Source of the DNA: a virus
Lineage: Duplodnaviria; Heunggongvirae; Uroviricota; Caudoviricetes
Strand: one strand, 5' to 3'
DNA length: 64,000 nucleotides
Virus record (IMG/VR): IMGVR_UViG_2541047715_000004
Part shown: positions 1 to 14,533 of the stretch, one piece after another
Numbering within the stretch: the first letter of the stretch is position 1
How the letters are laid out: each line of letters starts with the position of its first letter
The notes under the pieces: generated by a model
Seen by the model: the letters and a program-made list of their open reading frames with translations, nothing else
Told to the model about the DNA's origin: nothing
Databases searched by the model: none
Position numbers and translations under genes: made by a program

Positions 1-1
1 G

Positions 2-649
2 AGCACCACAACAAAAGACCTGATGACGCTGAAATGGGATGCGCTAAATATTCTGGTAAATGCCGTCATTAATGGCAGTCTTGGAGTTGGTACGACGAAT
101 GCGTTAGGTGGTAGCTCTATTGTTCTTGGTGATAATGACACCGGATTCAAACAGAATGGTGATGGTATTCTGGATGTTTACGCTAATAGTCAGCGAGTAT
201 TCCGCTTTCAGAATGGAGTTGCTATTGCTTTTAAAAACATTCAGGCTGGTGATAGTAAAAAGTTCTCGCTATCCAGCTCCAACACCTCCACAAAGAATGC
301 AACGTTTAATTTATGGGGTGCTTCAACCCGTCCAGTAGTTGCAGAGTTAGGCGATGAGGCAGGATGGCATTTCTATAGCCAGCGAAATACAGATAACTCG
401 GTAATATTTTCTGTTAACGGTCAGATACAGCCCAACAACTGGGGGAATTTTGATTCACGCTATGTAAAAGATGTTCGCCTGGGTACGCGAGTTGTTCAAT
501 TGATGGCGCGTGGTGGTCGTTATGAAAAAGCCGGACACGCAATTACCGGATTAAGAATCATTGGTGAAGTAGATGGCGATGATGAAGCCATCTTCAGGCC
601 AATACAAAAATACATCAATGGCACATGGTATAACGTCGCACAGGTGTAA
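2..649 (+). CDS. tail fiber protein, C-terminal part (gene starts upstream of window)
   Basis: Reading frame open to window start; Gly/Ser/Asn/Thr-rich sequence; immediately followed by a Tfa-type chaperone gene. Confidence 0.55.
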   Translation, partial: STTTKDLMTLKWDALNILVNAVINGSLGVGTTNALGGSSIVLGDNDTGFKQNGDGILDVYANSQRVFRFQNGVAIAFKNIQAGDSKKFSLSSSNTSTKNATFNLWGASTRPVVAELGDEAGWHFYSQRNTDNSVIFSVNGQIQPNNWGNFDSRYVKDVRLGTRVVQLMARGGRYEKAGHAITGLRIIGEVDGDDEAIFRPIQKYINGTWYNVAQV

Positions 650-1180
650 ATGATGCAGCATTTAAAAAATATTAAGTCTGGAAATCCTAAAACGAAAGAA
701 CAATATCAGCTAACAAAGAATTTTGATGTTATCTGGTTATGGTCCGAAGACGGAAAAAACTGGTATGAGGAAGTGAAGAACTTTCAGCCAGACACAATAA
801 AGATTGTTTACGATGCAAATAATATTATTGTCGCCATCACCAAAGATGCCTCCACGCTTAACCCTGAAGGTTATAGCGTCGTTGAGGTTCCAGATATTAC
901 AGCCAACCGCCGCGCTGATGATTCCGGTAAGTGGATGTTTAGGGACGGAGCTGTGGTTAAACGGATTTATACGGCAGACGAGCAACAACAACAGGCCGAA
1001 TCACAAAAGGCCGCGTTGCTTTCTGAAGCTGAAAGCGTTATTCAGCCACTGGAACGCGCTGTCAGGCTGAATATGGCGACGGATGAGGAGCGTACACGAC
1101 TGGAGTCATGGGAACGCTACAGCGTTCTGGTCAACCGTGTGGATACAGCAAAGCCCGAATGGCCACAAAAGCCTGAATAA
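650..1180 (+). CDS. tfa: tail fiber assembly protein (Tfa-like chaperone)
   Basis: 176 aa; start abuts stop of fiber gene; N-terminal region typical of Tfa/gpU/gpG family chaperones. Confidence 0.65.
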
Positions 1181-1342
1181 AAATTAAGGCCCGCTATCGG
1201 GCCTTGTCTCATTCATCATATTCAGCAATTGACCAAAAGGGTTGAGGAGCTTGAAACGAAGTTAAATTCACCTAAAGAATAAACAACTTCAATCGGGGCT
1301 GGAGCTAAACCAGCCCCTGCTTAAAAGTATAAGGATATATTT

Positions 1343-1597
1343 ATGAGCTATGGTGCACAGGTTTGGTCGCCATCAAGACAGGAGATGGTCAATGCGTTGG
1401 CCCCTGTTTATTACCTCGATTATTTTACTCCCTCTGGTTCAGGAAGTAGAACATATGAGGTTGAGGCGGGATTGGGAATCGACTATTACATAATGGACGT
1501 AACCAATGGAAAGTACACAAGTCTTACGGTTTCTGGAAATACCATTTCGTGGTCTGGAGCTAGTGGTAATTTAAACATATTGGTTTTTCAAAAATAA
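1343..1597 (+). CDS. hypothetical protein, paralog of 59078..59359
   Basis: 84 aa; shares ...FxPxxxDxFTxSGSxxTY...ISWSG... pattern with ORF 59078..59359. Confidence 0.45.
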   Translation: MSYGAQVWSPSRQEMVNALAPVYYLDYFTPSGSGSRTYEVEAGLGIDYYIMDVTNGKYTSLTVSGNTISWSGASGNLNILVFQK

Positions 1598-1690
1598 TGT
1601 ACGGAAGCAAGATATATCGATCTGACGGGAAGGTCTGGATGTCTCCTTCTTTGTCTCCTATCGTTTTTTCAGAGAAAGCAGGTTGTTTCT

Positions 1691-2206
1691 TTGTCCGGCG
1701 GAACAGAGTTTAACACCAAAATATCTCCAGATCGTTCACCGATTATTTTTGTTGCCTATTCGAAAGCTGTTTCATTAATAGCCAACAGAATAGTGCGTAA
1801 CAACCAGGTGATTTACAGTTTCGGAGGTCAGGGTAGCGACTCTAGTGCCACGATATACGTATTTTCGAAAGGTATAGCCAAAAAAGAAACTTGGGGCATG
1901 AGTTTTTTCAATGCACAAGGGGAGGAAATCTATAATACGGCAAATATCCCACTTTCATTTACCTTTCTTAATAATACGGAGTGGAACAGCTCTGGAGGGC
2001 ATGTTTTTGATTACCCTCCAGCGATAATCCCAACATATGCGAATGTGTTCGCTGTTCCAGTACCGGGCGGAGCCATGACAATGGTTTATGGATATGCGGC
2101 ATATGGAAATACTGTTAGCTCGATATTCGTAAACCAACTTAATGGCGGCCATAGTTTTAGCGTAAATGGCAGAGTACCGGTAATAAATAGAAATCTGTAT
2201 AACTGA
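1691..2206 (+). CDS. hypothetical protein, paralog of 59362..59976; 5-prime end ambiguous
   Basis: ORF begins at TTG; an ATG at 1597 in another frame encodes the paralog-like N-terminus (SDGKVWMSP...CFFV) and stops after about 38 codons. Confidence 0.4.
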   Translation: MSGGTEFNTKISPDRSPIIFVAYSKAVSLIANRIVRNNQVIYSFGGQGSDSSATIYVFSKGIAKKETWGMSFFNAQGEEIYNTANIPLSFTFLNNTEWNSSGGHVFDYPPAIIPTYANVFAVPVPGGAMTMVYGYAAYGNTVSSIFVNQLNGGHSFSVNGRVPVINRNLYN

Positions 2207-2213
2207 TGAGTAA

Positions 2214-2447
2214 ATGATGAAAAGATTATTTCTAACAATAGCTGTTGTTCTCTCTCTTACTGGCTGCCAGAAATTGCCGACACCTATATGTTATGGTGAA
2301 GCTATCATTGGTGGACAGGAGACAGTCATACCCATATATGCTGTTAAAAAAGTGAACGACTATACCTTATACAAAGCGGGTAGCATCTATAACTGGCGAT
2401 GGGTTGGAGTAGGTGCTTTCTCATCAATCGGTTGCAATGCTGAATGA
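2214..2447 (+). CDS. small lipoprotein (candidate superinfection-exclusion / receptor-blocking protein)
   Basis: 77 aa; signal peptide with lipobox LTGC; three Cys; lies between fiber genes and lysis genes. Confidence 0.55.
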   Translation: MMKRLFLTIAVVLSLTGCQKLPTPICYGEAIIGGQETVIPIYAVKKVNDYTLYKAGSIYNWRWVGVGAFSSIGCNAE

Positions 2448-2516
2448 TAGGTAAGTACACACCTACAACAAAAGGGTGAAATGTGATATAAATCCGCCAT
2501 CCCGATTTGACTTTTC

Positions 2517-2852
2517 ATGGAGGAAAACATGTCGAACGAGATGGCGGGCGTTACAACAGAGCAAGTTGAGCGTATTGCCGCGATCGTTGCTCGGGAGGTT
2601 GTTGGCAAATTAGGTAAAGAACTACGTGAAGAAATTGGCCAGGAGGTCAATGATCAGCTGAAAACCTACTTTGGTGATATGACCCCGGCGCAACATAGTA
2701 TTCAACACTCCAATCTGGACAAACTCCTTAACCGGTTAGATTCCATCTCAAGTGGGTTCTTTGGCGGCATTGTTTCTAAAATAACGTCGTTCATTATTAC
2801 CGCACTGCTTTTGGGGTTAGCCGCGTATGGCGTAAAAAGTGGACTGCAATAA
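2517..2852 (+). CDS. membrane protein with C-terminal TM helix (possible holin/antiholin)
   Basis: 111 aa; hydrophobic C-terminus ITSFIITALLLGLAAYGV; first gene of a lysis-like cluster. Confidence 0.3.
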   Translation: MEENMSNEMAGVTTEQVERIAAIVAREVVGKLGKELREEIGQEVNDQLKTYFGDMTPAQHSIQHSNLDKLLNRLDSISSGFFGGIVSKITSFIITALLLGLAAYGVKSGLQ

Positions 2853-2865
2853 CAGGAGATCAAGG

Positions 2866-3558
2866 ATGAAGACTCCGAGAGGCATTCGTAATAATAACCC
2901 CGGTAATCTTGATAAAGGATCACCGTGGCAAGGTCTGGTTGCGAATCCAGACGAACCGCGCTTTTGCACGTTTAAAGACCCTGTTTGGGGGATTCGTGCG
3001 CTGGCGGTGACTCTAATTACCTACCACGACAAACGTCGCGCAAAAGACGGCTCAAGTATCGATACCATTCGTGAAGTTATTGAACGTTGGGCACCGCCGA
3101 ATGAAAACAATACTGACGCCTACATTAATGAGGTGTCTAAAGCCGTTGGTGTAACCGCAGACATGATCATCGATCTGCATGATTACGACATCCTTCGACC
3201 TTTGGTTGAGGCAATCATTCGCCACGAGAATGGCCGAGGCCCGCTAAAAACGCTGAACACCTGGTATGCGGCAGAAGTTATTGAGGAAGGTCTGCGTCGA
3301 GCTGGCGTTGTTAAGCCGGTGAAAACCGTGAAGGCTGTTCCTGTAACTAAAGAAACCGCAGGCGCAACTGTTACAGCAGGTATTGGTCTGGCGCAGCTGG
3401 CCGATGTTATGCCGCAGGTTTCCGCTGCTATGGATAAAGCACAAGGTCATATCTCTAGCGGGGATACAGTACGCATCATCTTCGGTATTGCCACTATTGT
3501 TGTGGCAGGATTCATTGCCTGGTCGCAGGTAAGAAAACACCAGAAAGGGATGGTCTAA
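2866..3558 (+). CDS. putative lysis protein / endolysin-like with C-terminal membrane anchor
   Basis: Start moved to ATG 2866 after AGGAG; conserved GIRNNNPGNL motif; C-terminal TM helix; followed directly by spanin genes. Confidence 0.35.
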   Translation: MKTPRGIRNNNPGNLDKGSPWQGLVANPDEPRFCTFKDPVWGIRALAVTLITYHDKRRAKDGSSIDTIREVIERWAPPNENNTDAYINEVSKAVGVTADMIIDLHDYDILRPLVEAIIRHENGRGPLKTLNTWYAAEVIEEGLRRAGVVKPVKTVKAVPVTKETAGATVTAGIGLAQLADVMPQVSAAMDKAQGHISSGDTVRIIFGIATIVVAGFIAWSQVRKHQKGMV

Positions 3559-3559
3559 T

Positions 3560-3811
3560 ATGCTAGGCAGCCTGATGACAAAGCTAAAAGTTGCTTTGAT
3601 TACGCTGGCTGCCGTTCTTTTCGTTCTTGTCGGCGCTTACACGATGGGCGGGAATGCGGCGCGACGAGCAATGGAAGAGAAGGCAAAACAGGAAGACAGA
3701 AAACGACTTCAAAGCACAGTGGATGTCAAAAATGAAACGGTTAATGAAGTGCGGCAAAAAGATGCCTCTGGTGTTCATCGCGAGCTGTTTGATAAATGGG
3801 TGCGTGATTAA
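3560..3811 (+). CDS. i-spanin (Rz-like)
   Basis: 83 aa; N-terminal TM helix then charged coiled-coil-like region; partner lipoprotein ORF overlaps its 3-prime end in another frame. Confidence 0.55.
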   Translation: MLGSLMTKLKVALITLAAVLFVLVGAYTMGGNAARRAMEEKAKQEDRKRLQSTVDVKNETVNEVRQKDASGVHRELFDKWVRD

Positions 3812-3959
3812 GACGCAGGCTCCAGGCGTGCTATTCTGCGATGCTGCAAATCCTATTTATGTGAGTAGAGAGGATTTTATGACTGAGGAAACGGAGCGAC
3901 AGTTGCTTATCCACAATACGATAGGTGAAAGGCTGTGTGAGTGGGGGCACCTGAACTGA
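3732..3959 (+). CDS. o-spanin (Rz1-like lipoprotein), overlapping Rz 3-prime end
   Basis: Internal ATG of ORF 3627..3959; MKRLMKCGKKMPLVFIASCLINGC signal/lipobox-like N-terminus. Confidence 0.45.
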   Translation: MKRLMKCGKKMPLVFIASCLINGCVIKTQAPGVLFCDAANPIYVSREDFMTEETERQLLIHNTIGERLCEWGHLN

Positions 3960-4183
3960 GTCGATGATTGATGAGTGGTCTCAGTTTACCTTTTATCCTA
4001 AAGATGGCATCTTCACTCATATACACGCCTGTTCACTCAAGCTCATGTTGAATCATTTAGTAATTTGATGTAGATTTATTAGGCATCCACGTAAGTGGGC
4101 ACATACAGGCTACGCATCCTCGTAGCCTTCAACCCCGAGAGGGGTGCCGCAATGACACTTGTGTTAACGGCTAAGGTGGACAC

Positions 4184-4567
4184 ATGCTGAACGAGAAACG
4201 TTCTATACAAACTATTCGCGATTGCACGAGTATTATCGAGACTCATGTGCTGAATCAGCACAAGCTTGAAGTACGTAAGCTCAATAATGACGCTATTGAA
4301 CCGGAAGACTCACGCTTCATCGTTACCTTCAAAGACGATGTTGAGCGCGCTGGTGCAAGCGTGAAGCCATTAGCTGAAGCAATTTACCTGAATGGTCGTG
4401 TTCGTTTTGTAGTCAAGCCAGCTAAACAGTACCCTGAGCTGTCTCGTTTTATCGAGGCTTTTTCGGAGGTTATTGAACATTCTATTCGCCGCTTCTTACG
4501 CAATCATGGTAGCATTGTCAGCACGGTTAAGGCTGATGATTCTGCTACAAAATGGCTCCTACACTAG
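4184..4567 (+). CDS. hypothetical protein (first gene of two-gene cassette)
   Basis: 127 aa ORF; overlaps next ORF by 16 nt. Confidence 0.45.
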   Translation: MLNEKRSIQTIRDCTSIIETHVLNQHKLEVRKLNNDAIEPEDSRFIVTFKDDVERAGASVKPLAEAIYLNGRVRFVVKPAKQYPELSRFIEAFSEVIEHSIRRFLRNHGSIVSTVKADDSATKWLLH

Positions 4568-5304
4568 ATAGCGCATATTCAAAAGATCTAAGCGAGTTTC
4601 CTCATAAAGGGGAGACTCGTGTTGTTCGTTTTGGCTTTCTTATCAATGAAGCCTCCCTCTATAAAATCTCAGAAATTGAAATCATTGAACCAGAAGATGA
4701 CATTTGCCTGTATGTCTCTATGGAACTTGTAGGTGCGCGCGACCAAGGCGACCTGAGCGAATTCATCTTAGATCGAGCGGATGAAGATGCCCCTGAAGAA
4801 GAGATTATCAAAGAGGTGCTCCAGTCCGGGCTTCTGGACGAAAACAAAAATACGATCGCTGGTAGGATAGCTCTGCGTGAATATAGTTTTGTTGAAGACG
4901 GCAATGAGATCGAATGTTACCAGGTAGCCGGTGTCGAAACTGTCAGAGAGCGTCGTCAGCGAGGATTGTGTCACCGTACCTATCTCTTTCTTCTTCATTG
5001 GTATGAGCATTTAGTCTGCGACGATACACAAACCATTCCTGGTGCTAAGATCTGGGCAGGGCCTCTCATGCGAACCGGCGATGTGCGTATATACAATGCC
5101 AAAACAGAAACGTTCGAGGATGTGTTAGGTGAGTACGGGATGGGGAAAGAAACCGGATTTTTGCCGTGGAACAGAGGATTGTTGCTTGATGCAGAGTTAA
5201 GCTCTTGGCTCCCAAACAAAGTGCAAGTTAACGTTCAGAAATTTATCGTACTTATCATCTCCCGCAAAACAAGAACTCCAGTAGGTTTATACCTAAAAGA
5301 TTAA
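4552..5304 (+). CDS. hypothetical protein (second gene of cassette)
   Basis: 250 aa ORF followed by strong intrinsic terminator. Confidence 0.45.
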   Translation: MAPTLDSAYSKDLSEFPHKGETRVVRFGFLINEASLYKISEIEIIEPEDDICLYVSMELVGARDQGDLSEFILDRADEDAPEEEIIKEVLQSGLLDENKNTIAGRIALREYSFVEDGNEIECYQVAGVETVRERRQRGLCHRTYLFLLHWYEHLVCDDTQTIPGAKIWAGPLMRTGDVRIYNAKTETFEDVLGEYGMGKETGFLPWNRGLLLDAELSSWLPNKVQVNVQKFIVLIISRKTRTPVGLYLKD

Positions 5305-5309
5305 AAATC

Positions 5310-5334
5310 AGGCGACTTTGGTCGCCTTTTTTGT
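5310..5334 (+). terminator. rho-independent terminator
   Basis: AGGCGAC-TTTG-GTCGCCT hairpin followed by TTTTTT. Confidence 0.75.
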
Positions 5335-5480
5335 TAACAGCCATTGATTCTCGCCTAAAAATTCTAAGGCAGCACCTACCATTTAACCTTTACACCACAG
5401 CCGTAGGCATTTAGGCTATATCACATATAAGAAAACAAGTTGTTTCAGACGATAATTATATACGCAAAGGGAACTCTCCA

Positions 5481-14388: not shown

Positions 14389-14533
14389 TTCCATACATCT
14401 AATTAGCTTTTATGGGTGGCTTCCTTATCGGCTTCGGCATCTGTCGTGATTTAATTAAGCAGGAACTTAAAACCAAAACACTGTGCATCGGAAAGCGTGT
14501 GTATCGGGTAGTTCATGAAACAAAGGTGAAAAA

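Follow-up and report, generated by a model that had tools for sequence, protein, structure and literature searches.

A predicted Cor-family superinfection-exclusion lipoprotein in an SSU5-like phage-plasmid of Escherichia coli

What does a 77-aa lipoprotein gene do between the tail-fibre and lysis genes of a tailed phage and, if its product keeps other phages out of the cell, which receptor does it act upon? This question is posed by a 64,000-nt stretch of viral DNA, referred to here as the window. From position 2446 onward, the DNA identity is 96% to Cyrano, an E. coli phage-plasmid, and 83.5% to SSU5, a phage of Salmonella, and region 1181..2520 of the window shares 99.9% identity with ~110 kb plasmids of E. 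coli, E. fergusonii and Shigella. These identities indicate that the window comes from an SSU5-like phage-plasmid of Escherichia. The gene, cor, is found in the following neighbourhood:

1..649, + strand, side tail-fibre gene, C-terminal part with a P2 H-like tip (PHROG 454 and related families)
650..1180, + strand, tail fibre assembly protein, P2 G-like Tfa (PHROG 136, E 8e-82)
1343..1597, + strand, N15 gp22-like gene, 84 aa, cassette gene 1 (PHROG 557, E 2.4e-24; 68% identical to SSU5_023)
1597..2206, + strand, N15 gp23-like gene, cassette gene 2, 202 aa when intact (PHROG 425, E 5.8e-49; the intact copy covers 3-223 of 224)
2214..2447, + strand, cor, phage exclusion lipoprotein Cor precursor, 77 aa (ORF, NF047972, PHROG 1119, identity to WP_000977749.1)
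2529..2852, + strand, holin-like gene, first of the lysis cassette (PHROG 5093; holin in the Cyrano and SSU5 annotations; PGAP coordinates mapped)
2866..3558, + strand, endolysin (PHROG 873, E 6e-89)
3560..3811, + strand, Rz-like i-spanin (PHROG 1026 / PHROG 1275 for the spanin pair)
~3744..3959, + strand, Rz1-like o-spanin, out of frame and partly overlapping Rz (PHROG 1026 / PHROG 1275 for the spanin pair)

The cor gene starts 7 nt past the gp23-like stop and ends ~80 nt ahead of the holin gene. The first-pass annotation had located it after the tail fibre and Tfa genes and before the lysis cassette, and this holds. The two intervening ORFs, which it had taken for fibre paralogs, are instead homologs of gp22 and gp23 of N15, phi80 and T1.

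The lipoprotein and its family

The precursor has the sequence MMKRLFLTIAVVLSLTGCQKLPTPICYGEAIIGGQETVIPIYAVKKVNDYTLYKAGSIYNWRWVGVGAFSSIGCNAE; translation could equally well begin at the second ATG, at 2217. It had been described as a 77-aa lipoprotein with a signal peptide, an LTGC lipobox, a mature part of about 60 residues and two further Cys, and all of these elements can be read in the ORF:

2214..2264, + strand, type II (lipoprotein) signal peptide, residues 1-17 (direct reading and lipobox regular expression)
2256..2267, + strand, lipobox L15-T16-G17-C18 (regular-expression match; the sole lipobox in the ORF)
2265..2444, + strand, predicted mature lipoprotein, 60 residues from the acylated Cys18 (sequence reading)
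2289..2291, + strand, Cys26 (sequence reading)
2433..2435, + strand, Cys74 (sequence reading)

The signal peptide combines a basic n-region (KR) with a hydrophobic core, and the highest 15-residue Kyte-Doolittle window (1.94) spans residues 5-19. Cys residues are present at positions 18, 26 and 74 only, and Cys26 and Cys74 probably form a disulfide. The mature Cor fold is a small beta-sheet. Residue +2 of the mature protein is Gln, not Asp. By the sorting rule of E. coli, lipoproteins with a residue other than Asp at +2 go to the outer membrane, which would thus be the destination of Cor.

Cor proteins are small phage products that inactivate FhuA, a receptor in the outer membrane, and so shut out other phages; cor counts as a textbook gene of superinfection exclusion and lysogenic conversion. 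The window protein scores 80.1 bits against the NCBIfam equivalog NF047972 (cutoff 31), with residues 2-75 on profile positions 1-77 of 78, and matches PHROG 1119, 'Cor superinfection exclusion protein', over its full length at E 7.8e-30. In calibration, NF047972 gave 140.9 bits for phi80 Cor, 77.5 for SSU5_025, 55.8 for T1 Cor and no match for T5 Llp, whereas T5 Llp also falls into PHROG 1119 at E 1e-19. This means that PHROG 1119 lumps Cor and Llp together, while NF047972 separates the two. On the NF047972 score, the window protein is placed inside Cor proper, above the experimentally studied T1 Cor. It is 100% identical to RefSeq WP_000977749.1, for which the PGAP name is 'cor: phage exclusion lipoprotein Cor', so that the gene is of a known kind and already annotated in public databases.

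Its identity amounts to 57-59% with SSU5_025, 43% with the Cor proteins of phi80 and N15 and 28% with T1 Cor; phi80 Cor and T1 Cor are 38% identical to each other. Across 83 homologs, the Cys of the lipobox never varies and neither do the other two, and the motifs GGQET, YxAG and WRWV are common to the window Cor and known Cor proteins. The Cor proteins of phi80, N15, HK022, mEp167 and T1 resemble it in belonging to the NF047972 / PHROG 1119 family, in their length of 75-78 aa and in having a lipobox and two Cys. They differ from it in that the identity of known Cor proteins to the window protein is only 28-43%, and in that the host element here is an SSU5-like phage-plasmid. SSU5_025 ('putative phage superinfection exclusion protein Cor-like protein') of Salmonella phage SSU5 is an ortholog at the same position. 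The two are different alleles, the window gene belonging to an element of E. coli and SSU5_025 to one of Salmonella. In GenBank, SSU5_025 has been called 'Cor-like' from the time the SSU5 genome was deposited. The literature searched contained no experimental test of SSU5_025 or of the window Cor.

Taken together, the NF047972 score, the lipobox with a compatible +2 residue, the Cys pair and the gp22/gp23-like neighbours assign the window gene to Cor and not to Llp. In Pfam, the only match was to LPAM_1, weak and below the cutoff; with this sub-threshold hit to a lipoprotein signal alone, Pfam has no Cor family model. Searches of a protein collection returned 4 matches with the single sequence as query (word index) and 207 with a profile of six Cor proteins. 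The identical RefSeq protein, the conserved DNA in 68 genomes and the strong family matches argue that cor is a real gene rather than a chance ORF. The original proposal of a receptor-blocking superinfection-exclusion lipoprotein gains support from homology, namely NF047972, PHROG 1119 and the T1/N15/phi80 cassette. Its remark that there was no sequence basis for homology has to be divided: clear homology to Cor exists, and a significant sequence match to Llp was indeed absent.

By tblastn, Cor homologs also turned up under the labels Campylobacter phage (A13a and others) and Pseudomonas phage Motto. The records concerned resemble genomes of T1-like coliphages, and their host labels are probably due to contamination or mislabelling.

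The three-gene cassette and the predicted target

T1, N15 and phi80 are classical FhuA-dependent phages. In all three, a gp22-like and a gp23-like gene followed by cor stand directly downstream of the J-like tail-tip gene, and the gp22-like/gp23-like/cor cassette after the tail-tip region thus has the same make-up as in the window. In the window, the cassette follows the side fibre and Tfa and immediately precedes the lysis genes, whereas in phi80, N15 and T1 it comes directly after J. SSU5 shares the gene order of the window: J, side fibre, Tfa, 84-aa gene, 188-aa gene, Cor-like gene, holin. PHROG 557 and PHROG 425 also contain gp22/gp23 of phi80, gp22/gp23 of N15 and ST32/ST31 of T1, respectively. 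BLASTP gave no match between the window's gp22-like and gp23-like proteins and phi80 gp22/gp23 at E 1e-3, so that the PHROG profiles alone link them. Neither a signal peptide nor a lipobox nor a Cys was found in the gp22-like and gp23-like proteins. Their sole hydrophobic stretch, residues 48-62 of the gp23-like protein (KD 1.70), is broken by a Lys.

The literature is split on gp22/gp23-type proteins, which are seen either as receptor-binding proteins or as exclusion accessories. In the BASEL study, loci downstream of gpJ were read as encoding dedicated receptor-binding proteins and cognate exclusion proteins, and the allele at these loci predicts the terminal receptor (PMC8594841). According to a 2026 paper, ten BASEL phages carry the complete cor cassette and all ten use FhuA, while Cor-like genes with a partial cassette or none occur in BtuB-using and T5-like phages (PMC13164509).

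The gp23-like gene of the window is interrupted. A T-run at 1664..1669 holds six T here and five in NZ_CP061757.1 and the other closest plasmids, and the extra T splits the gene into a 38-aa ORF and a 171-aa ORF. In line with this, the cassette region counts 1340 bases in the window and 1339 in all closest plasmids. Removal of one T restores a 202-aa protein identical to the plasmid version. The extra T would thus be either a sequencing error in a homopolymer or a sign that the gene became a pseudogene very recently. The gp23-like ATG overlaps the gp22-like stop in a TAATG at 1595..1599, as in phi80, N15 and T1, and this ATG, giving 202 aa, is most likely the start. GenBank/PGAP sets the start 42 nt downstream, for a 188-aa product that covers only 17-224 of PHROG 425, and this annotated version looks too short. 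The 202-aa frame was also placed in two retrieved pieces of DNA, at 14417..15025 of L004 and 8381..8989 of L001 (in the numbering of those pieces).

We propose that the window gene encodes a superinfection-exclusion lipoprotein of the Cor family in an SSU5-like phage-plasmid of E. coli and that its target is FhuA, a reading that we consider probable. FhuA is the most likely target because cor ends a three-gene cassette whose presence goes along with FhuA use in other siphophages; both the completeness of the cassette and the family score favour it, and we hold this part of the proposal with good though not full confidence. In this model, the lipid anchor would hold Cor in the outer membrane's inner leaflet, where its disulfide-stabilised domain would bind FhuA, a TonB-dependent transporter, on the periplasmic face. 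The receptor would then be changed, as solved for T5 Llp, so that FhuA could no longer be used for phage binding or DNA entry. FhuA-dependent phages of the T1, T5, phi80 and N15 types would be kept out, and side effects on other FhuA ligands would be expected.

Could the same mechanism be directed at another outer-membrane protein, such as BtuB or another TonB-dependent transporter? At 28-43% identity, the clade of the window Cor is divergent from those Cor proteins that have been tested, and its gp22/gp23-like partners are tied to those of phi80 by profiles only. Moreover, phages that use BtuB are reported to have Cor-like proteins (PMC13164509), and one proposal has Llp-type lipoproteins acting on many TonB-dependent transporters (PMC9586334). 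However, the BtuB cases are reported without a complete cassette, whereas all three genes are present at the window locus. The complete cassette goes with FhuA in every BASEL phage that carries it, and the window Cor outscores the FhuA-directed T1 Cor on the equivalog model. Another target therefore seems unlikely.

Two further readings give Cor no part in exclusion, and both fare worse. If the cassette were decaying, Cor might be unmade or ineffective: the adjoining gp23-like gene is frameshifted in the window, a polar effect across the 7-nt gap is conceivable as cor has no promoter-like site, and most SSU5-like plasmids are missing the cassette. The cor ORF itself, however, is intact, the same as the copy in plasmids with an intact cassette, and conserved in its key residues, while the frameshift is a single-base homopolymer change confined to this copy when compared with the closest plasmids and may be a sequencing error. 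An inactive remnant is thus very unlikely. The idea of a lysis-related lipoprotein, either an o-spanin or a lysis accessory, draws on position alone, cor ending just ahead of the holin gene, and its probability is close to negligible. An o-spanin identity was rejected because a separate Rz/Rz1 pair is present at 3560..3959, no spanin family was matched and the matches obtained were to Cor. In addition, the homologs in T1, N15 and phi80 are not beside lysis genes, and cor-negative relatives retain the full lysis cassette.

If Cor acts on FhuA, as we favour, FhuA is possibly also the terminal receptor of this phage. For the SSU5 group, the LPS core, to which the side fibre binds, is the sole receptor on record (PMC12312913, citing Kim 2014); no terminal protein receptor of SSU5 is reported in the literature searched. 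With the LPS core as the only reported receptor, Cor may mainly exclude other FhuA-dependent phages, and exclusion of these would be a safer prediction than self-exclusion. The C-terminus of J was considered as an indicator of the receptor and set aside. Over the last 204 residues it shares 39.5% identity with phi80 J, which says nothing about FhuA since this segment is conserved in >2000 phages of Vibrio, Burkholderia, Klebsiella and Pseudomonas.

Relation to T5 Llp and timing of expression

Cor and Llp have been reported to share ~20% identity including the disulfide, as well as a predicted architecture and probably a mechanism (PMC9586334; bioRxiv 10.64898/2026.03.26.714494; PMC13164509). 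In our searches with a Cor profile against PDB sequences, T5 Llp (PDB 8A60, 7QJF) was the best match as 8a60_B, at an E of only 0.18 and over the N-terminus only. Similarly, hhalign of Llp against Cor gave 86.7% probability over the N-terminal 42 columns only. Significant sequence similarity of the window Cor to Llp was thus found neither by profile search nor by hhalign nor with NF047972.

An AlphaFold2 model of Cor, built on the 83-sequence alignment, reached a mean pLDDT of 87.5. The first-pass annotation had proposed to compare a predicted structure with T5 Llp. The best PDB match of the model is T5 Llp in complex with FhuA; Foldseek against the PDB yielded nothing significant. In BFVD, the top matches of the model are a Dhillonvirus exclusion protein and lipoproteins of T5-like phages. 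On the basis of the model, Cor shares its fold with the solved Llp structure, and the proposed analogy between Cor and Llp is probably one of distant homology.

The gene contexts differ as well. T5 llp is divergent from the oad (pb5) gene and is annotated with its own promoters, whereas the window cor has PHROG 557/425 neighbours and a 7-nt gap; a pb5-type neighbour and an early promoter of its own were not found at the window cor. Rtp45 of phage Rtp is a further exclusion protein that is encoded in the receptor-binding locus of a small siphophage and alters the conformation of a receptor (PMC12685063). Its target is LptD (LptDE), unlike the FhuA proposed for Cor, and the likeness between the two is one of role.

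Since cor starts only 7 nt past the gp23-like stop, co-transcription with the cassette is probable. The gap before cor ranges from 7 to 11 nt across SSU5 and the window, compared with 111 nt in phi80 and N15, and cor of T1 is on the opposite strand, whereas the window cor is on the same strand as its cassette. The short gap and the strand point to an expression arrangement that differs from those of phi80, N15 and T1. A promoter and terminator scan found fewer sites than in shuffled controls and none near cor, and so offers no evidence about expression. The short gap without a promoter-like site nearby suggests that cor is expressed with the cassette, possibly late, in a tail-to-lysis transcription unit. 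Cor might be made in the plasmid-prophage state, which would amount to lysogenic conversion. In the alternative scenario, it would be made during lytic growth only, and the infected cell and the progeny would be protected as by Llp. Late expression would resemble Llp in lytic growth more than classical lysogenic conversion.

An optional cassette and its surroundings

Among 5426 complete E. coli genomes, 238 contain the SSU5-type lysis module and 68 (~1.3%) this cor allele, always on plasmids. The cassette is thus present in 68 of the 238 SSU5-like plasmids (~29%), and the cor DNA is 95-100% conserved among the 68 genomes. In the cor-negative relatives Cyrano and pMTY18780-3, the fibre gene stands directly ahead of the holin gene and the lysis cassette is whole. 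The J protein of Cyrano is 97.7% identical to J of a cor-positive plasmid. With such similar J proteins in the presence and absence of the cassette, the cassette is not needed for building the tail tip; it would be a plug-in that may be present or absent, and no fixed component of the tip. The Cyrano paper reports that virions are produced and gives neither a receptor nor a recipient.

A broader model would be that SSU5-like plasmid-prophages, which are common in clinical E. coli, use FhuA as terminal receptor via the gp22/gp23-like proteins, and that hosts of the ~29% with the cassette become resistant to T1/T5/phi80-type phages by conversion, with altered uptake through FhuA. The cassette would then be a plug-in module of receptor use plus exclusion. 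We put this model forward tentatively and rate its chances somewhat below even. The predicted optional FhuA-type receptor-and-exclusion cassette in SSU5-like phage-plasmids is the only mildly new element of this work; the gene is of a known kind, and its worth lies in annotation and prediction, and little in discovery. For SSU5-like phages, whose terminal protein receptor is still unreported, the cassette provides a prediction that can be tested. Furthermore, the ~1.3% of complete E. coli genomes with this allele may resist FhuA-dependent phages used in typing or therapy.

Further variation was observed around the cassette. In the cor-negative NZ_CP083502.1, a J-like 'tail tip fiber protein' gene occupies 65055..76826 (11.7 kb, ~3920 aa); the protein is ~2.5 times the usual 1575 aa and may have a long C-terminal extension with receptor-binding domains of its own. 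At the start of the window, the fibre tip and Tfa (1..1214) show 92-96% DNA identity to the H/G genes of P2, Wphi and Xuanwuvirus myophages, and the P2-like match stops just past a GC-rich hairpin at 1186..1205. It appears that this fibre-tip and chaperone cassette was recently exchanged between an SSU5-like siphovirus phage-plasmid and a P2-like myovirus. On the other side, between the spanin genes and parA (3960..5400), the window has two + strand ORFs, 4184..4567 (PHROG 2594) and 4552..5304. The same slot in Cyrano and NZ_CP061757.1 holds an opposite-strand pair, a KacT-type GNAT toxin with a DUF1778 antitoxin. Judged from this comparison, the interval between spanins and parA is a second variable slot beside the lysis cassette.
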